This document shows positions 1,289-8,823 of a stretch of 8,823 nucleotides of DNA, one piece after another; position 1 is the first letter of the stretch, and the number at the start of each line of letters is the position of its first letter. The translations under genes and the position numbers were made by a program. The stretch is taken from NCBI RefSeq assembly GCF_003334815.1, contig NZ_QOWO01000064.1, one strand, 5' to 3'. The DNA comes from Escherichia coli. Its GTDB lineage: Bacteria; Pseudomonadota; Gammaproteobacteria; Enterobacterales; Enterobacteriaceae. The notes under the pieces are model-generated. The model was not told the origin of the DNA and did not search any database. It worked only from the letters and a program-made list of their open reading frames with translations.

Positions 1289-1636
1289 GTACCTGTGTTT
1301 TCACTACTTTGTTTGCATGTAACGCTGATAATCTAAGAACTTCGGAAGCCCCATTTCCATCAATGATGTTCATTCATCATCCTGAAAATTAAGTAGATAT
1401 AAAACTTCATTGCCTTGGTCTAATGGCACAGAAATAGATTGCATTTGGCGAGTGGCATTCTTAGTGCGTCGTTGTTTAGTCATGAAACGATGCGTAAAAT
1501 TGCTGATTTTATGTGTCAAAGTCCCGCAACCGGAGATGGCCTTACTTCAATGATCAACCACTATTGACGTATCCTTTTAATATCTTGATTCAATTCAGCA
1601 GGTTATCGTCCAAAGTACAGCGAAGAGAGAGAAAAG

Positions 1637-4528
1637 ATGATTGGTACAACACCTTATCATGCGAAATATTTTGCGCATGAACTTTCCATTCTTCATTCAA
1701 ACAATGGGGTGGACCGTCTGTCTCAATCGCTGTTTGATGCAAGCGTAGATCTAAACCCTCATCAAATTGAGGCGGCTCTTTTTGCTATCGAAAATCCGCT
1801 AAGCAAAGGTGTTGTGCTTGCCGATGAAGTTGGTTTGGGTAAAACCATTGAAGCTGGACTAGTGCTTTGCCAGTTGTGGGCTGAAAGAAAACGTAAACTG
1901 TTGATCATTTGTCCTGCTTCACTGCGTCGCCAATGGGCGAGCGAGTTACAGGAAAAGTTCAATCTACCTTCTCAGGTGTTGGACGCGAAAATGTATAGCC
2001 AGCTTCAAAAAGAAGGGATCCATAATCCCTTAAATAATAAATCGATCACTATCATGTCATACCACTATGCTGCTCGGTTAGAAGAGAAATTGGTGGCTGA
2101 AATGTGGGATCTGGTTGTTATCGACGAAGCCCATAAACTGCGTAATGCTCATCGAGAAAGCAACAAAATGGGGCAAGCGTTAAAGCGTGCGCTTGATGGG
2201 CGGAAGAAATTACTACTGACCGCAACGCCTTTACAGAACTCGTTGATGGAACTGTATGGCATGTCGACGCTTATAGATGAACATACCTTCGGCGAAGTTA
2301 AAGCGTTCAGAAAGCAATATATGCAGGCAGATAGCGATATTGCGGAGTTGAAGGGGCGATTGTCGCGTTTTATCAAACGAACTCTACGCAAGAATGTGCT
2401 GGAGTATATCAAGTATACAGAACGTAAAGCGATCACTATTCCTTTCTATCCGAGCGAACAGGAGCAGGATCTTTATGAACGCGTACAAAAATTGCTTGAA
2501 CGTGAGGATAGCTATGCCTTACCAAAACGACACCGGCATCTGACGGGGCTTATACTCAGAAAACTACTTTCCTCAAGTACGAAAGCCGTATTGAATAACT
2601 TGCAGATCCTTAAGACTCGTTTAGAAAGGTTAAAGCTGGAAGGTATCGTTGAAGATGATATGGACATCATCCAACAGATCATAATGGATGATGATCTTGA
2701 AGATGACATCGTTGAAGATGCCGAATCAGTAGCGCCAGATACAGAGTGCAAATCTGTGGATTCAGATGCGCTTCAGGCAGAAATCAATGAGCTGGAATCA
2801 CTCATTGTTAAAGCAGAACAGATTGGCACTGATACCAAATCAAAAGAGTTGCTTTCTGGCCTGGAGCAAGGTTTTGCACAGCTTGCCGAAATGGGGGCTG
2901 CAAAAAAAGTCATCATCTTCACGGAGTCGATGCGAACTCAACAGTACCTTGCACATTTTCTGGAAAACAATGGCTACCAGGGAAAAGTAGTAACCTTTAG
3001 TGGCACAAACAATACACCGCAGGCAAACAAGATCTACCAGCAATGGCGCGAGGAATATCAGGGATCTTCTCGTATTACCGGGTCGGCGCAAATTGATAAA
3101 CGCTCGGCTTTGATCGACCACTTCAAAGATCATGCTGAAATCATGATAGCTACAGAAGCTGCAGCTGAAGGGGTGAACCTGCAATTTTGTTCGCTACTGA
3201 TCAATTACGATTTACCCTGGAACCCACAACGCATTGAGCAGCGTATTGGACGTTGTCACCGATACGGGCAAAAATTTGATGTGGTTGTTATTAACTTCCT
3301 CAATCAGCGAAACCAGGCCGATCAACGCGTTCTTGAACTCTTAACTGAAAAGTTCAGCCTGTTTGATGGCGTGTTTGGCGCATCGGATAGTGTGCTTGGC
3401 AGCATAGAAAATGGTGTGGATTTTGAAAAAAGGATCCAGTCAATTTATGAGTCATGCCGTACCCCCGAGGAGATAGAGCTGGCTTTTGAAAGGTTGCAGA
3501 AAGAGCTGGAAGATGAAATCAATCTCAAGATGCAGAAGACGCAAGAACAGTTGCTTGAGCATTTTGATGAAGATATTCACGATATCCTTAAAATAAGGCT
3601 TGATGAAGCTCGGGAGCGCCTGGATAAAGTCGGTCGTTGGTTTTGGGCCGTGACCTGTCAGCAGCTCAAACAATATGCTGATTTTGATCATGAGCATCAT
3701 CGTTTCACTTTACGTGAATCAGTCAATGAACTGCCTGTCGGGCAGTACCAGCTGTTGCGCAAAGATGGCAGGCAAAATAGTGCGTTACAAATGCAGGATC
3801 ACCACAGTTTTGCATATCGGATCAATCATCCACTGGGTGAGTACGTCATTGACGGAGCTAAAGCCCAGGAGACGAAAACAGCTGAAGTCATCTTCGATTA
3901 CAGTAACCACACAACGAAAGTTTCGGTGGCTGAGCAGCTGAAAGGGCAATCAGGATGGTTAACACTAAATTTGCTTACTGTTGATGCGTTTAACAGGCAG
4001 CAATTTTTAGTCTTTACCGCGAAAACTGACAACGGACGTGTGGTAGATGGTGAAGCTTGTAAACGTCTGTTCAACTTGTCTGCAATAACCAACGAAAAGC
4101 TGGATAATTCGGCAAGTTTAGATGCATTACCTGATGACTTGATCTTACTCAAGAACAGGCAAATTGACGCCAGGCTTGCAGAAGTTTTGGAGCAGAACAA
4201 TGTCCTTTTTGAAGCGGAAAGAGATAAGCTGGAAAAATGGGCTGAAGACATGATCTTTGCGGCGGAAGAAGCATTACGCGATACCAAAATGCAAATCAAG
4301 TCGTTGAAGCGAGAAGCCAGGCTGGCGCAATCGATCGAAGAACAAAAGCAAAACCAGGAAAAGCTTAAGCTCCTGGAACGGCAGCAGAAGCGCCAACGTA
4401 TGGAAATTTTTGACATTGAAGATGAGATCGCCGACAAGCGGGATGAACTCATCAGTGCCCTTGAAGAGCGGATGAAGCAAAAGACGGATATCACCGAGCT
4501 GTTTACCATCCGCTGGAAAGTTATTTAA
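1637..4528 (+). CDS. SNF2-family (DEAH-type superfamily 2) helicase/ATPase, 963 aa; candidate DrmD-like component
   Basis: Motifs are visible in the translation: Walker A GLGKT (nt 1832-1846), motif II DEAH (2123-2134), the SNF2-type motif III TATPLQN, and in the C-terminal lobe motif V IATEAAAEGVNLQ and motif VI QRIGRCHRYGQ (3239-3271). A purine-rich Shine-Dalgarno-like stretch (AGAGAGAGAAAAG) precedes the ATG. GC about 43-47% by hand count. Confidence 0.9.
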   Translation: MIGTTPYHAKYFAHELSILHSNNGVDRLSQSLFDASVDLNPHQIEAALFAIENPLSKGVVLADEVGLGKTIEAGLVLCQLWAERKRKLLIICPASLRRQWASELQEKFNLPSQVLDAKMYSQLQKEGIHNPLNNKSITIMSYHYAARLEEKLVAEMWDLVVIDEAHKLRNAHRESNKMGQALKRALDGRKKLLLTATPLQNSLMELYGMSTLIDEHTFGEVKAFRKQYMQADSDIAELKGRLSRFIKRTLRKNVLEYIKYTERKAITIPFYPSEQEQDLYERVQKLLEREDSYALPKRHRHLTGLILRKLLSSSTKAVLNNLQILKTRLERLKLEGIVEDDMDIIQQIIMDDDLEDDIVEDAESVAPDTECKSVDSDALQAEINELESLIVKAEQIGTDTKSKELLSGLEQGFAQLAEMGAAKKVIIFTESMRTQQYLAHFLENNGYQGKVVTFSGTNNTPQANKIYQQWREEYQGSSRITGSAQIDKRSALIDHFKDHAEIMIATEAAAEGVNLQFCSLLINYDLPWNPQRIEQRIGRCHRYGQKFDVVVINFLNQRNQADQRVLELLTEKFSLFDGVFGASDSVLGSIENGVDFEKRIQSIYESCRTPEEIELAFERLQKELEDEINLKMQKTQEQLLEHFDEDIHDILKIRLDEARERLDKVGRWFWAVTCQQLKQYADFDHEHHRFTLRESVNELPVGQYQLLRKDGRQNSALQMQDHHSFAYRINHPLGEYVIDGAKAQETKTAEVIFDYSNHTTKVSVAEQLKGQSGWLTLNLLTVDAFNRQQFLVFTAKTDNGRVVDGEACKRLFNLSAITNEKLDNSASLDALPDDLILLKNRQIDARLAEVLEQNNVLFEAERDKLEKWAEDMIFAAEEALRDTKMQIKSLKREARLAQSIEEQKQNQEKLKLLERQQKRQRMEIFDIEDEIADKRDELISALEERMKQKTDITELFTIRWKVI

Positions 4529-4548
4529 TTGATTTGAAAGAGAAAATA

Positions 4549-7500
4549 ATGAGTAAGTACAACGAATTAGTTAAGAAGCTAAAAGAAATTTTTCAGATTG
4601 ATCGACCAGAACTGGATTTCGGTATTTATCGTATTTTAAATGCGCGTGCTGATGAAATTAACGACTATCTGGATAATAAGCTGAAGGCCAAAATCCAGTC
4701 TGCGCTGGCGGATGCAGGAAATGCCAATAAATCAGAATTAGAACATCAGTTGCAACTGACAATAAAAGCGGCAACTGATGCGGGTGTAGACCCTGCTGAT
4801 AGCCCAAAAGTACAGGAGCTTAAAAAGCAACTGGCGGCTATGGCATCCGGAGCAAATGAGCATGAAAATGCAGTATTTTCCCATCTGCTCACTTTCTTTT
4901 CGCGTTATTATGACAACGGCGATTTTATCAGCAAACGCCGTTATAAAGGTAATACCTACGCCATCCCCTATTCTGGCGAAGAAGTGATGTTGCACTGGGC
5001 AAATAAGGACCAGTACTACATTAAAAGCGGTGAAAACTTCGCTAATTATTCGTTCAAATTAGAAGACGGTCGTAAAGTTAGCTTTAAATTGCTCGCAGCG
5101 GACACAGCAAAAGATAACCGTAAAGATAATGAATTAGATCGCTGCTTTGTACTTATTGAGCCACATGTTCGTACCAAAATTGATGAAGAAGGCGATGAGT
5201 ACGAACAAGAATATAAGCCAGTAGAAGTGGTGAAAAACTCATCTGTGGTGGACGGTAAACTCGTTGAAACAGAAGAGTTAGTTATTCACTTCGAATATAA
5301 GGCAATGAAAAAGGGCACTAAGCAGGATGCTTTAGTACAGTCCGCCATTTCAACAATTCTGGCAGATAAAACAGTTCAACAGCATTGGGTTGATCTTGCT
5401 AAACGTGCGCCAACAGAAAAGAATCCGTCACGTACAGAGTTGGAGCGTCACCTTACAACTTATACCCAGCGTAATACAGCAGACTACTTTATCCATAAAG
5501 ATCTCGGTGGTTTTTTAACGAACGAACTGGATTTTTATATTAAAAATGAAGTAATGAATCTCGATAATGTGCAAAATGCAGAAGTGTTTGCCAATGTTGA
5601 GAAACAATTGCGCATGATTCAATGTTTGCGTGCTGTTGCGCTGGAACTCATTACATTTTTGGCACAAATTGAGAATTTCCAGAAAAAACTTTGGACTAAG
5701 AAGAAGTTTGTTGTTGGGCATGAGTATCTTGTGTCACTTTCAAATCTATCAGATTCGCTTTACGATAAAATTCGAACTAATAAAGGGCAACATGATGAAT
5801 GGGTTGAGCTTTATGCTGTAAATAAAATTCCTGGATATTCATTTCCATTCACAAAAGATTTCTTGTATAAAAATAATGGTATGATATTGGATACAAAATA
5901 TTTTGATCCGTCATTTAAGGAGGTTTTTTTAACAGAGTTAACTAATGTTGACGATAATTTAGATGGTCTCTTAATTAATTCAGATAATTATCAGGCCATT
6001 AATTTTTTGGAGGGGCGGTATAAGGACTCAATAGACTGTCTTTATATTGATCCTCCGTATAATACTGCGGCTTCAGAAATTTTATATAAAAATGAATATA
6101 AGCACAGCAGCTGGAATTCATTAATGTATGAAAGGATATCTAAAAGCTATAATTTACTGAAAATTTCTGCAATTAATTTTACCGCGATAGATCATGCGGA
6201 ATTATATAATCTTGGTAAGATCAAGGATGAAATCTATGGAGAACAAAACAGGATAGCAGTTGTTACTGTTCAGCATAATCCTAAAGGGCGTAACCAGGCA
6301 AAGTTCTTTTCTGAAAATACTGAGTATATGTTAGTATATGCTAAAGATTTTAATGCTGCTAACTTTAACTCTGTAGCTATCGATGAGGATGTGCTTTTAA
6401 CATTCACAGAACAAGATAATATAGGCCGTTATCGTTGGGAAAACTTTATTCGTGCAAGAACAAGTTGGTCCAGAGCAAATAGACCAAATAACTGGTATCC
6501 TTTATACGTCTCTTCCGACTTAAAATCAATTTCTGTTGATTATGTAGATGGGTATATCGAAGTATATCCTACAACTAAACAGGGGGATTTTTCGTGGAAA
6601 AATATTAAAGAATCATTTGTTGAATTAAATAAAGATAATTATTTTAAAGCTGTAAATGAAAATGGAGAAATAAAAATCTATCATAAATATAGGGAGCAGC
6701 AAGTCTTTAAAAATCTTTGGATTGATAAGAAATATCAGTCTGAGTTTAATGGTACAAATTTACTGAAAAACATACTTGGACAATCACTATTTGATTATCC
6801 GAAATCATTATATGCAGTACAAGATGCAATCAAAATGTCGACACCACACAATGGTATTGTATTGGACTATTTTGCAGGTTCAGGGACAACTTCTCATGCA
6901 GTAATAAACCTTAATAATTCAGATAATCTCTGTATGAAATTTATCAATGTTGAAATGGGTACTCATTTCAATACAGTAGTTATTCCAAGATTGAAGAAAA
7001 TTGGATATTCAAACTTATGGAAACAATGTAAACCAATCGGTAAACCTCAAAAAATGACTATCAAGTATTTGAAACTTGAAAGTTATGAGGATGCTCTTAA
7101 TAATATACAATTACGAAGTTATTCATTGCATCAGGATATTTTCGACATTTTGGTGGAAGATGTAAAATCAGAGTTTGCTCTTAAATATATTTTTGAAAAT
7201 GAATTATTTTATTCACTATTAAATACTGATAATTTCAAAAAACCATTTAACTACGAAATGGATATTGCGACGGATTCCGCCGGTGCCACTGAGCGTAAAA
7301 ACATCGATTTAGTTGAAACTTTCAATTATCTCATTGGCTTACATGTGAAATCCATCGAATCTGATATCGCACGTGGCTATGTGCGTATTGAAGGAACGCT
7401 GCCAACAGGCGAGCGTACCCTTATTCTGTGGCGCGATTGCGACAAGATCGGTTATGAAGAATTGAATAAATATGCCAACCGATTTGATTTGTATGCAAAA

Positions 7501-7653
7501 GAAAACACGTTCGACGTTATCTACATCAATGGCGATCATAACTTACCTACCGCCTTTACCGTTGATGAAGAAGACGGCGAGATTGTTCGTAGCCTGAAAA
7601 TTCGCCAGATCGAACCTGAATTCTTGAACCTGATGTTTGCGGAGGAGGTTTAA
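4549..7653 (+). CDS. Beta-class DNA methyltransferase (N6-adenine/N4-cytosine type, Type III Mod-like catalytic core) with a ~420-aa N-terminal extension, 1034 aa; candidate DrmMI-like component
   Basis: Motif IV DPPY (CLYIDPPYN, nt 6049-6060) precedes motif I FxGxG (LDYFAGSGTT, nt 6865-6891) by about 270 residues, which is the beta-class order with room for a target-recognition domain between them. I place the start at ATG 4549, preceded by AAAGAG; the track starts at an in-frame TTG at 4534, which remains a possible alternative. Only 20 nt separate it from the upstream stop. Confidence 0.88.
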   Translation: MSKYNELVKKLKEIFQIDRPELDFGIYRILNARADEINDYLDNKLKAKIQSALADAGNANKSELEHQLQLTIKAATDAGVDPADSPKVQELKKQLAAMASGANEHENAVFSHLLTFFSRYYDNGDFISKRRYKGNTYAIPYSGEEVMLHWANKDQYYIKSGENFANYSFKLEDGRKVSFKLLAADTAKDNRKDNELDRCFVLIEPHVRTKIDEEGDEYEQEYKPVEVVKNSSVVDGKLVETEELVIHFEYKAMKKGTKQDALVQSAISTILADKTVQQHWVDLAKRAPTEKNPSRTELERHLTTYTQRNTADYFIHKDLGGFLTNELDFYIKNEVMNLDNVQNAEVFANVEKQLRMIQCLRAVALELITFLAQIENFQKKLWTKKKFVVGHEYLVSLSNLSDSLYDKIRTNKGQHDEWVELYAVNKIPGYSFPFTKDFLYKNNGMILDTKYFDPSFKEVFLTELTNVDDNLDGLLINSDNYQAINFLEGRYKDSIDCLYIDPPYNTAASEILYKNEYKHSSWNSLMYERISKSYNLLKISAINFTAIDHAELYNLGKIKDEIYGEQNRIAVVTVQHNPKGRNQAKFFSENTEYMLVYAKDFNAANFNSVAIDEDVLLTFTEQDNIGRYRWENFIRARTSWSRANRPNNWYPLYVSSDLKSISVDYVDGYIEVYPTTKQGDFSWKNIKESFVELNKDNYFKAVNENGEIKIYHKYREQQVFKNLWIDKKYQSEFNGTNLLKNILGQSLFDYPKSLYAVQDAIKMSTPHNGIVLDYFAGSGTTSHAVINLNNSDNLCMKFINVEMGTHFNTVVIPRLKKIGYSNLWKQCKPIGKPQKMTIKYLKLESYEDALNNIQLRSYSLHQDIFDILVEDVKSEFALKYIFENELFYSLLNTDNFKKPFNYEMDIATDSAGATERKNIDLVETFNYLIGLHVKSIESDIARGYVRIEGTLPTGERTLILWRDCDKIGYEELNKYANRFDLYAKENTFDVIYINGDHNLPTAFTVDEEDGEIVRSLKIRQIEPEFLNLMFAEEV
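7641..7648 (+). promoter_or_regulatory. Shine-Dalgarno sequence GGAGGAGG for the third gene, embedded in the last codons of the methyltransferase gene
   Basis: GGAGGAGG lies 7 nt upstream of ATG 7656. The methyltransferase stop (7651-7653) and the next start are 2 nt apart, which suggests translational coupling. Confidence 0.6.
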
Positions 7654-7655
7654 GA

Positions 7656-8669
7656 ATGGCTAAAAAACCGACCACCGGTAAAGCAGTTAAAAAAGAGACT
7701 AACAGCAAGCTGAGCTTTCATAAACAACTGGTTTTAAACCGCTTTATGTTCCATTTTTTCAAAGATGGCACATTGCAAGGTTTGAAGAATCGGTTAGGCG
7801 AGGATCGCTTTGAAGGCATCCATGAAGATGGCCAAAGCTTGTTCTTCCATGAGCTGAGTAACTATTTATTCGAGGTCGATCTAATCGATCTCGATGAACT
7901 GCGTCGTTACGATCTCAATATCGTGCAGCACTGGCAGCAGATAACCGAGCACCGTAATCGTAAAGAAGACACTGTGCTGAACATGAAATATTTTCAGTAC
8001 TTGTCGCTTCTGTTTACCGAGATCTACCTGGACTGGTACTTCAATCGTAAACAGCAATTACTCGATGGGCTAAATAACGAGCTGGCAGCATACAATGCTG
8101 AAAATGATAAAACAGCAAAAGACCGGGCTAATCAGTTCAAATCATATGTTCTGGATGATTTGAATAAATTGGCATACTGGAACGCTACTGGTTCTGGTAA
8201 GACACTGCTATTACATGTCAATATTTTGCAATATTTACATTATTTCCAGAACGGTAATAGCCATCATTATCCGGATAAAATCATCCTGCTTACGCCGGAT
8301 GAACGCCTGTCGAAGCAACATTTAGATGAACTGGAAAACTCAGGGTTTACCCAATACCAGTTGTTCGATAAGAGTAAATCAGCGCCCTTCAAAGGCACGA
8401 TTGAAGTCATTGATATCAATAAACTTGATGATAAAATGGGCGACAAAACTGTTGCCGTTGAGGCATTTGAAGGCAACAATCTGGTCCTGATTGATGAAGG
8501 GCATAAAGGCACAGGAAGTGCTGCTGGTGCCTGGATGCGCCGTCGTGACAAGTTAACTCGTGACGGATTTGCGTTTGAATATTCAGCAACTTTTGGCCAG
8601 GCAGTAGCCGGTGGCAATAATGTGGAGGCAGTTGAAACAGAAATTCAGAAGAAAAAAGCAAAGCTCTGA
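7656..8669 (+). CDS. Helicase-like ATPase containing only the first RecA-like lobe (Type III Res-like / DrmA-like N-terminal region), 337 aa; probably truncated or disrupted
   Basis: Walker A ATGSGKT (nt 8184-8204; GSGKT at 8190-8204), motif II LIDEGH (DEGH at 8493-8504) and a motif III-like SAT (8583-8591) are present. The ORF stops at 8667-8669 with no motifs IV-VI and no arginine-finger region. The following 8670-8732 has stops in all three forward frames. Confidence 0.75.
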   Translation: MAKKPTTGKAVKKETNSKLSFHKQLVLNRFMFHFFKDGTLQGLKNRLGEDRFEGIHEDGQSLFFHELSNYLFEVDLIDLDELRRYDLNIVQHWQQITEHRNRKEDTVLNMKYFQYLSLLFTEIYLDWYFNRKQQLLDGLNNELAAYNAENDKTAKDRANQFKSYVLDDLNKLAYWNATGSGKTLLLHVNILQYLHYFQNGNSHHYPDKIILLTPDERLSKQHLDELENSGFTQYQLFDKSKSAPFKGTIEVIDINKLDDKMGDKTVAVEAFEGNNLVLIDEGHKGTGSAAGAWMRRRDKLTRDGFAFEYSATFGQAVAGGNNVEAVETEIQKKKAKL

Positions 8670-8823
8670 GAGATCCCCTCATAATTTCCCCAAAGCGTAA
8701 CCATGTGTGAATAAATTTTGAGCTAGTAGGGTTGCAGCCACGAGTAAGTCTTCCCTTGTTATTGTGTAGCCAGAATGCCGCAAAACTTCCATGCCTAAGC
8801 GAACTGTTGAGAGTACGTTTCGA

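Follow-up and report, generated by a model that had tools for sequence, protein, structure and literature searches.

How SNF2-type motors of bacterial defence islands (DrmD, HmaA and a Type III-associated family) stay inactive on host DNA, and then switch on, is the question that this locus raises. The DNA analysed here, an 8,823-nucleotide stretch from Escherichia coli that we call the window, carries a gene for a DrmD-like SNF2-family ATPase of 963 aa (positions 1637..4528, + strand; RefSeq WP_000580532.1, "SNF2-related protein"). A first-pass annotation of the window had drawn attention to a strongly acidic segment in this protein, between its two helicase lobes. We find that the segment is a real, family-typical, fast-evolving and partly helical inter-lobe insert, and that it is probably a regulatory or spacer element. 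Should it turn out to serve as a gate or for docking, it would provide a simple handle for dissecting motor control. Literature searches found nothing specific on an acidic insert in DrmD, and nothing specific on a trio of SNF2 protein, Type III Mod and Res.

Results

By its sequence features the protein belongs to the Snf2-family SF2 ATPases: it has helicase motifs I, II, III, IV, V and VI, a long span between motifs III and IV (about 225 aa) and Pfam matches to SNF2-rel_dom (residues 42-289, E = 1.3e-36) and Helicase_C (437-544, E = 2.7e-19). The translation contains GLGKT (66-70), DEAH (163-166), TATP (195-198, the start of motif III, TATPLQN, 195-201), IIFTES (426-431) and QRIGRCHRYGQ (535-545), and these sequences are invariant or almost so across the family. 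The AlphaFold2 model has a mean pLDDT of 90.7 and a pTM of 0.90. The PADLOC DrmD profile PDLC02619 matches with E = 4e-199. Scores against two NCBIfam models, NF038318 (DISARM_DrmD_b; 667 bits, curated equivalog cutoff 950) and NF038317 (292 bits, cutoff 610), fall below threshold. As judged by these profiles, the protein is DrmD-like, yet no DISARM DrmD.

The SNF2 gene is followed on the same strand by a gene for a Type III-like DNA methyltransferase (Mod; 4549..7653, 1034 aa from the RefSeq start, with the reading frame open from a TTG at 4534) and by the first 337 codons of a gene for a Res-like DEAD/DEAH helicase (7656..8669). Mod matches PADLOC MTase_III PDLC03646 over its full length (E = 0) and Pfam N6_N4_Mtase at residues 495-804, and the Res fragment matches Pfam ResIII and positions 7-341 of the 1154 in PADLOC REase_III PDLC03654 (E = 4e-205). 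The Res gene is interrupted by the end of an IS10/ISVsa5 (IS4-family) element at 8666..8823: similarity to other E. coli genomes ends at 8665, and the last 158 bases of the window are 100% identical to ISVsa5-family transposase elements. An intact Res gene, encoding 1126 aa, is present in NZ_CP054353. At the intact locus the neighbours of the SNF2 gene are Mod, Res and gene remnants, and no DrmA, DrmB (DUF1998) or DrmC (PLD) genes were found within 9 kb on either side. Classical Type III restriction-modification pairs Mod, a beta-class N6/N4 methylase, with Res, an SF2 helicase fused to a nuclease, and to our knowledge has no SNF2 partner. Of six family neighbourhoods that could be read, five have methylase genes directly after the SNF2 gene (this window and those of P0001, P0030, P0108 and P0130), and in three of these five loci a Res-type helicase gene adjoins the methylase.

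The acidic segment comprises residues 339-370 (2651..2746, + strand; translation EDDMDIIQQIIMDDDLEDDIVEDAESVAPDTE). The first-pass annotation had its start right and closed it at 2745, one base short of the last codon. With 15 D/E and no K/R in 32 aa (the whole protein has 16% D/E and 13% K/R), the segment is the most negative 32-aa stretch of the protein, and its net charge of -15 was attained in only 2 of 5000 residue shuffles. It lies C-terminal of motif III and N-terminal of Helicase_C, outside the SNF2 core motifs, just where it had been placed from the letters alone. It is contained in a longer variable acidic insert, residues 333-380 (2633..2776, + strand), between two conserved helices. 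Nothing unusual was seen in the base composition at the segment. The sole other open reading frame across it, antisense at 2512-2751 (79 aa), is Ser-rich because the reverse complement of GAT/GAA codons yields Ser; we dismissed it as a gene, since it merely mirrors the Asp/Glu codons of the other strand, and found no support for it.

The 13-nt sequence ATCGTTGAAGATG is repeated exactly and in direct orientation (2645-2657 and 2708-2720, + strand); the copies lie 63 nt apart and each codes for IVED, a pattern that is consistent with a small in-frame duplication within the acidic segment. Low-complexity acidic runs are common in proteins, and with short direct repeats in the DNA one might take the patch for a low-complexity by-product of GAT/GAA codon slippage that is under no selection. 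We consider this very improbable. So negative a charge is rare among shuffles, a core motif within the segment is conserved (see below), and among 109 divergent homologues about 95% keep the acidity, as do HmaA-like helicases with unrelated codon sequences. This conservation across families weighs strongly against slippage.

The family set consists of 109 sequences, down to 35% identity, aligned over query residues 331-381. Among them the inter-lobe insert spans 18-106 aa (median 52) and has a median D/E content of 31%, against 15% elsewhere, with K/R reduced to about 8% and a median net charge of -12. Net charge is -5 or lower in 103 of the 109 members and -8 or lower in 91, and it is zero or above in one, P0108, which has a non-acidic linker (net +4). 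Since 103 members are acidic at the same site, the segment is not peculiar to E. coli. Four HmaA-like helicases, at about 28% identity, also carry an acidic insert at this hairpin tip (80-92 aa, net charge -7 to -10). Judged by composition across the family, the acidity of the insert is shown to be kept by selection.

Three more distant SNF2 relatives have no insert; their flanking helices are joined directly (28-32 aa, net charge 0 to +2). To the question, raised by the first-pass annotation, of whether the insert is lineage-specific, the answer is therefore twofold: it is neither confined to E. coli nor universal among SNF2 proteins. The annotation's own counter-proposal, that every SNF2 homologue has the segment as an ordinary linker, fails because these three relatives lack the insert. 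The insert is shown to be an add-on to the SNF2 fold, and some relatives do without it. The gene for one of the three, a Monoglobus relative, also adjoins Mod and Res genes, and P0108, with its non-acidic linker, keeps Mod and Res neighbours as well; the partnership therefore does not depend on the insert.

In its letters the insert changes quickly. The alignment is poor across the whole family, residues 333-380 gather 2.5-6 times the expected substitutions among close relatives, and in these relatives the region is the second most variable 40-aa span of the protein. Such variability would suit a passive acidic spacer, that is, a flexible, solvent-exposed linker at an insertion-tolerant site with no docking or regulatory role, which we regard as possible though rather unlikely. 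The accompanying idea, that negative charge merely keeps the linker soluble and unstuck from DNA and from the protein's own basic surfaces, seems to us equally doubtful. The wide range of insert lengths, the three relatives without an insert and the one non-acidic member all fit a spacer, and the 13-nt repeat suggests growth through small duplications.

The conserved core of the segment tells against a spacer. Closer relatives show an acidic core with a fast-evolving, K/R-poor acidic flank on each side of it, three parts in all. The core, 20 aa long (residues 343-362; 2663..2722, + strand), follows the pattern D-h-h-x-x-h-h-x-D-D-D-L-E-x-D-[YFI]-h-[DE]-[DE], where h is hydrophobic, and this amphipathic pattern is fixed from enterobacteria to Legionella and Desulfurispira. 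Among 119 sequences of 61-99% identity, residue-class conservation of the core is 0.84, the same as the average over the whole protein (0.84), and the flanks score 0.43 and 0.48; at this level of comparison the core is shown to be under ordinary purifying selection. The columns of D351, E360 and E363 are 87-94% acidic even at 35-64% identity, which a plain spacer would not need. The spacing of the core hydrophobics at i, i+1, i+4 and i+5 suggests a packed amphipathic helix.

AlphaFold2 places two short helices of moderate confidence in the insert, at residues 342-352 (pLDDT about 78) and 355-362 (about 63). With such helices in a model that averages 90.7, the insert is not predicted to be wholly disordered. 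Confidence drops to about 61 over residues 351-370, a value that also suits a spacer. The two helices cap a confident helical hairpin between the lobes. Its first arm, residues 315-335 (2579..2641, + strand; pLDDT 82-94), comes directly after a conserved LRKLLSSS block (307-314) in which S313 and S314 are invariant in the family; its second arm, residues 376-395 (2762..2821, + strand; pLDDT 87-98), contains E382, conserved at 95%.

The order of conserved elements indicates where in the Snf2 architecture the insert belongs. It follows RTLRK (R248 and R251 invariant) and LRKLLSSS, and it precedes motif IV (VIIFTES) and, just ahead of that motif, a block at residues 399-411 (2831..2869, + strand) in which K401 is 98% and L405 99% conserved; from its position and pattern we infer that this is Snf2 "block K". 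In a study of the remodeller DDM1, the Snf2 major insertion region is defined as the polypeptide between conserved blocks C and K (bioRxiv 10.1101/2023.08.09.551721). By motif position, with blocks C and K read from the motif pattern, the site of the insert corresponds to this region. A search of PDB sequences with the inter-lobe residues 296-456 alone gave chance matches only (E of at least 0.21), so this piece has no solved relative.

Discussion

The inter-lobe acidic insert is typical of the family, and by analogy with Chd1 and ISWI its most likely role is that of a tethered electrostatic gate, an interpretation that we prefer but hold tentatively, at somewhat below even confidence. In the predicted structure the insert sits at the tip of the two-helix hairpin between lobe 2 of the DrmD-like motor and lobe 1, which bears a helical protrusion. 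While the motor is at rest, the acidic helix and tail would lie on one of its basic DNA-binding surfaces, or repel DNA from there, and so keep DNA-stimulated ATPase activity low. Correct DNA, or the Mod and Res partners, would displace it.

There are precedents for such a gate. In Chd1, an acidic helix attaches to lobe 2 at a basic surface (PMC6118821). The AcidicN helix of ISWI binds the same place, and its mutation results in a hyperactive, undiscriminating ATPase (PMC5305211). In DDM1, acidic residues of the major insertion region bind H4 R19 (bioRxiv 10.1101/2023.08.09.551721). In DrmA, a trigger loop occludes the DNA-binding site (PMC9142583). These are analogies, drawn from elements in other positions or in other proteins. 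The roles that the first-pass annotation had suggested, an autoinhibitory or DNA-mimicking element or a docking surface for a basic partner, likewise have as their basis analogies with eukaryotic SNF2 enzymes and with DrmA.

The evidence bearing on the gate is mixed. In its favour, composition of the insert is conserved while its sequence is not, and the conserved core, the helices predicted in it and the acidic inserts of the HmaA-like helicases count on the same side. P0108, with a non-acidic linker, and the Monoglobus relative, with no insert, both keep Mod and Res neighbours and count against it. The variability in length and sequence (18-106 aa), as read from the alignment, also fits a passive spacer, and with a pLDDT of only 61-78 in the insert any docking is uncertain. 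When the charge of the insert was compared with that of successive 25-aa blocks of the SNF2 protein, the strongest covariation was with residues 176-200, the most basic block of lobe 1 (rho = -0.37, ignoring phylogeny); we take this weak negative correlation as a hint only. DNA mimics of the Ocr/ArdA type hold their carboxylates rigidly at the spacing of DNA phosphates and compete with DNA for a binding site, and the low-confidence, variable flanks in the predicted structure argue against a mimic of this kind.

The insert might instead be a docking surface for a basic segment of Mod, of Res, or of a DNA-bound or phage protein, in parallel with the cavity that receives the basic patch of histone H4. 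We think this unlikely. In DDM1, the major insertion region (blocks C-K) contributes to the H4-binding acidic cavity of lobe 2 (bioRxiv 10.1101/2023.08.09.551721). The position of the SNF2 gene directly upstream of methylase genes in most of the readable neighbourhoods, in some of them with a Res-type helicase, counts on the same side, as does a Lys-rich tail at the N-terminus of E. coli Res, MAKKPTTGKAVKKETNSK. However, the Res proteins beside P0030 and P0108 have no basic N-terminal tail; it is therefore not a conserved partner, and we rejected it as a candidate. Partner types also vary among family members (long Mod, short Mod, or an MmeI/Type ISP-like enzyme), and one member that has neither a methylase nor a Res neighbour still has an acidic insert; both observations speak against docking.

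Long fused homologues (P0005, P0007, P0023, P0029, P0047 and P0065) were considered as "Rosetta stone" clues and set aside as uninformative, PADLOC finding in them only the DrmD-like module and weak UvrD-like parts.

A broader proposal, again made by analogy and in our estimate rather improbable, is that the conserved amphipathic acidic module on the inter-lobe stalk is a dedicated regulatory switch of methylase-coupled bacterial SNF2 defence motors, both DrmD-like and HmaA-like. Acting as a pseudo-substrate in cis or as a docking site for partners, it would permit translocation only when the DNA or the complex is the correct one. Bacteria would then possess, at a position of its own, a counterpart to the logic of AcidicN, the Chd1 acidic helix and the H4 cavity. 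A gate or a docking element, if either is correct, would mean that the regulatory logic known from eukaryotic remodellers, in which an acidic element opposes a DNA-binding surface that is basic, is present in their bacterial relatives. If the insert is only a spacer, it marks an insertion-tolerant site and provides a signature separating this family from SNF2 proteins that have no insert.

Comparison with known systems

The best-scoring family is DrmD of DISARM class 1, with which the SNF2 protein is collinear over residues 31-684 (to 671 for the NCBIfam model). The matched spans, 654 query residues and 650 profile positions, are nearly equal, and the DrmD profile therefore covers the inter-lobe region without a large gap. 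The two differ in that the C-terminal 290 aa of the SNF2 protein are unmatched and its score lies under the cutoff. They differ also in company: the DISARM operon has the helicase DrmA, DrmB and usually DrmC, whereas the locus described here has a Type III-like Mod and Res.

The HmaA-like "helicase-related protein" of Hma (helicase, DUF1156 methylase and ATPase) is likewise an SNF2-type motor beside a DNA methylase. These helicases are 27-31% identical to the SNF2 protein over the motor, are larger (1111-1173 aa) and have other partners; their insert has a weaker acidic character and matches the core motif only inexactly.

E. coli RapA is the closest solved structure: it ranks first in the PDB in sequence comparison (E = 3e-36) and also in fold comparison (Foldseek E = 6e-26, TM 0.54 to 8t0l_F). 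It too is a bacterial member of the SNF2 proteins and is about as large. The alignment spans only residues 37-227 and 487-558 of the SNF2 protein and leaves the acidic inter-lobe region unaligned, and RapA acts on RNA polymerase, not beside a methylase.

In eukaryotic remodellers, insertions occur at the same topological site, after the block C/LRK-type block and ahead of the block K Lys that comes before motif IV (examples are the D501/D508 loop of DDM1 and the large inserts of INO80 and SWR1), a correspondence that rests on motif order and not on residue-level structural alignment. In remodellers the region frequently has an acidic character and serves to bind the H4 tail, which is basic, whereas we know of no histones in bacteria, and the insert described here is about 50 aa longer and has helices of its own.

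The acidic helix of the Chd1 chromodomain, the DrmA trigger loop and ISWI AcidicN are acidic or flexible cis elements that lie over the DNA-binding surface of an SF2 motor and set its substrate discrimination. The Chd1 and ISWI elements are N-terminal to the motor, DrmA belongs to another helicase family, and none of the three is homologous to the insert; what the insert shares with the gates of Chd1 and ISWI is an acidic alpha-helix, here a predicted one, in the same polypeptide as the motor.

Position and composition of the acidic segment

Nucleotides 2651-2746 translate exactly to the peptide quoted in the first-pass annotation, residues 339-370 of the SNF2 protein. These 32 residues include 15 Asp/Glu and no Lys/Arg, no other 32-residue stretch of the protein is more negative, and the charge was matched in just 2 of 5,000 shuffles of the protein's residues. 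The segment follows motif III (TATPLQN, residues 195-201) and precedes the Helicase_C lobe. The original observation, of an acidic patch between motif III and the C-terminal lobe, is correct and statistically sound. No credible alternative coding was found at the site, where base composition is flat; an overlapping antisense ORF was rejected as a gene, being a Ser-rich mirror of GAT/GAA codons. An exact 13-nt direct repeat, ATCGTTGAAGATG, is present in two copies (2645-2657 and 2708-2720) at a spacing of 63 nt. Both copies encode IVED within the acidic segment, suggesting that a short piece was duplicated in frame.

Conservation of the insert

Among 1.84 billion representative proteins, a full HMMER search identified 150 family members with 35-64% identity, and 108 full-length members were aligned with the query. 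The helices flanking the insert are conserved across these 109 sequences (S313/S314 invariant, E382 95%, K401 98%, L405 99%); the stretch between them is not reliably alignable and varies in length from 18 to 106 aa, with a median of 52. The median Asp/Glu content of the insert is 31%, versus 15% in the remainder of each protein, Lys/Arg is lowered to about 8%, and the median net charge is -12. Net charge is -8 or lower in 91 of the 109 inserts and -5 or lower in 103, and a single homologue, P0108, has a non-negative insert. Columns corresponding to D351 (94%), E360 (93%) and E363 (87%) are acidic throughout the family. The acidity of the insert is under selection. An origin as an unselected product of slippage is contradicted by this cross-family conservation and is highly improbable.

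Closer relatives make up a second set of 119 distinct sequences (the query and 118 homologues, 61-99% identity), which covers Enterobacteriaceae, Vibrio, Aeromonas, Legionella, Pseudoalteromonas and Desulfurispira and divides the segment into three parts. Residue-class conservation in the core, residues 343-362, matches the average over the protein (both 0.84); the parts on either side, residues 333-342 (0.43) and 363-377 (0.48), are variable. The core reads D-h-h-x-x-h-h-x-D-D-D-L-E-x-D-[Y/F/I]-h-[D/E]-[D/E], with h a hydrophobic residue. Substitutions in the whole segment are 2.5-6 times expectation; of the 13 positions at which a 99%-identical E. coli allele differs, 4 fall within it. Thus the core of the insert is constrained and its flanks evolve freely.

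Plasmid-borne SNF2 relatives at a greater distance (27-31% identity) fall into two groups. In three of them, two short cyanobacterial SNF2 proteins and one Monoglobus helicase, the flanking helices are joined directly (28-32 aa, net charge 0 to +2); the Monoglobus helicase itself adjoins methylase and Res genes. At the same site, acidic inserts 80-92 aa long (net charge -7 to -10), for example ...DDMAPEDYEEFEEE..., are present in four HmaA-like "helicase-related proteins" that adjoin DUF1156 methylases. Because distant relatives are divided into those with and those without it, the insert is an addition to the SNF2 fold, dispensable for that fold and, in some lineages at least, for living beside Mod and Res. 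The direct joining in three relatives argues against an ordinary linker present in all SNF2 homologues, and the first-pass annotation was right that the patch is not a SNF2 core motif; nor is it universal. The insert is found across the family and is no peculiarity of a single lineage: it is absent from the three distant relatives and is not private to E. coli, 103 of the 109 sequences having a charge of -5 or lower. Besides the E. coli protein's family, one other methylase-linked family typically has it. The first-pass interpretation is thus supported in part. A passive acidic spacer is possible if somewhat unlikely; in its favor are the very wide range of lengths and sequences and the two exceptions, P0108 and Monoglobus.

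Predicted structure

The AlphaFold2 model of the SNF2 protein, built with the 109-sequence alignment, is confident (mean pLDDT 90.7, pTM 0.90). Predicted helices at residues 315-335 (pLDDT 82-94) and 376-395 (87-98) enclose two short helices, 342-352 (about 78) and 355-362 (about 63), and a coil, 363-375 (about 61); a further helix, 400-419 (96-98), runs into lobe 2. In relatives lacking the insert a short turn connects the counterparts of helices 315-335 and 376-395; these two helices therefore form a hairpin with the acidic module at its tip. The two short helices are predicted to be amphipathic, with a hydrophobic face of I344/I345/I348/I349 and L354/I358/V359 and acidic residues elsewhere. 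Among solved structures E. coli RapA comes closest, ahead of the ISWI, SMARCAD1, CHD and Snf2 motors; a PDB sequence search with the inter-lobe region alone gave no significant match.

The C-terminal third of the protein (residues about 672-963, 3650-4525) lies outside the DrmD profiles and has no Pfam match. It is predicted with high confidence to form a beta-rich domain (about 680-830) and then a hairpin of two very long antiparallel helices (833-895 and 900-946), after which the last strand rejoins the sheet.

Genomic context

The window comes from a genomic island of E. coli, and 93 of 5,426 complete E. coli genomes carry at least 80% of the window, with an identity of about 99-100%. The copy in strain SCU-172 is bounded by CP4-type prophage genes (yeeU/cbtA, DUF5983, DUF957) and the nanC/fimB region. 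Three genes share one direction: the SNF2-family ATPase (963 aa, 1637-4528), a Type III-like methyltransferase, Mod (1034 aa, 4549-7653), and a Res-like DEAD/DEAH helicase (7656-8669), of which only the first 337 codons are present. Intact copies of Res have 1126 aa; here the end of an IS4-family element (IS10/ISVsa5, 8666-8823) breaks the gene after codon 337, at position 8665, and other E. coli genomes match only to 8665. The restriction arm is therefore probably inactive in this strain, with SNF2 and Mod intact.

The three genes form a recurring unit (1637-8669; 10637-20036 in L001, a further copy), found in 93 of the 5,426 complete E. coli genomes; PADLOC would label its Mod and Res a Type III R-M system. 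The N-terminal 460 or so residues of Mod have no Pfam match. In the gap of about 900 bp 5' of the SNF2 gene (728-1636; L001 9833-10086) there are only fragments of pseudogenes, among them what is left of a helix-turn-helix regulator. In a metagenomic homologue (L002), in Monoglobus (L011) and in the Klebsiella, Citrobacter and Salmonella plasmid copies, the SNF2 gene is immediately preceded by an intact helix-turn-helix gene, so a regulator may have been lost from the E. coli island. G+C across the SNF2 gene (1600-4600) is about 43-46%, well under the E. coli average, which fits horizontal acquisition of the island; the nearest relatives outside E. coli are in Enterobacter, Salmonella, Vibrio and Aeromonas.

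The best family matches of the SNF2 protein are DISARM DrmD models, at 667 bits versus a curated cutoff of 950, and no DrmA, DrmB or DrmC was found near the gene. We therefore rejected a DISARM component and regard the protein as DrmD-like. DNA methylase genes usually lie 3' of family members: the long Mod type follows the E. coli gene and its homologue P0001, a short N6_N4 methylase and ResIII helicase follow P0030 and P0108, and a MmeI/Type ISP-like enzyme follows P0130; P0100 has no methylase or Res neighbor. The short Mod proteins beside P0030 (L003 3154-4890) and P0108 (L005 3131-4810) have acidic C-terminal tails (for example ...EDEEDELTEEEDELTEESS and ...PESEDFDDE), and acidic low-complexity tails thus recur in more than one component of these systems. 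A literature search found no description of the SNF2, Mod and Res trio or its acidic insert.

Comparison with Snf2 motors

The insert comes after two blocks, RTLRK (with invariant R248 and R251) and LRKLLSSS, and ahead of the conserved K401...L405 block and motif IV; judging from this motif pattern, the flanking blocks may correspond to Snf2 blocks C and K. [quoted passage not shown] This region is modest in size in most remodellers and helps form an acidic lobe-2 cavity that binds the histone H4 tail, with D501 and D508 of DDM1 touching H4 R19 (bioRxiv 10.1101/2023.08.09.551721). By analogy with that cavity, the insert might serve to dock a basic peptide from a partner, as first proposed, and the Lys-rich N-terminus of E. 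coli Res (MAKKPTTGKAVKKETNSK, 7656-7709) is a possible counterpart. However, the Lys-rich tail is missing from the Res proteins beside P0030 and P0108, and we consider docking unlikely.

The insert is best classed as a family-typical acidic insertion at a known insertion-tolerant site of the SNF2 motor. A regulatory role is plausible because the amphipathic core is conserved. A conserved cis regulatory switch common to methylase-coupled defence SNF2 motors is possible if somewhat unlikely. The reading we tentatively prefer, by analogy, is a tethered acidic gate, which in the resting state would occupy or electrostatically shield a basic DNA-binding surface of the motor. Insert charge and the charge of the most basic lobe 1 block (residues 176-200) show a weak negative correlation (rho -0.37, uncorrected for phylogeny), in weak agreement with the direction expected of such a gate. 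Among known systems, the Chd1 acidic helix rests on a basic surface of lobe 2 (PMC6118821), the AcidicN helix of ISWI binds the same place, and its mutation yields a hyperactive, undiscriminating ATPase (PMC5305211); in DrmA, a trigger loop blocks the DNA site (PMC9142583).
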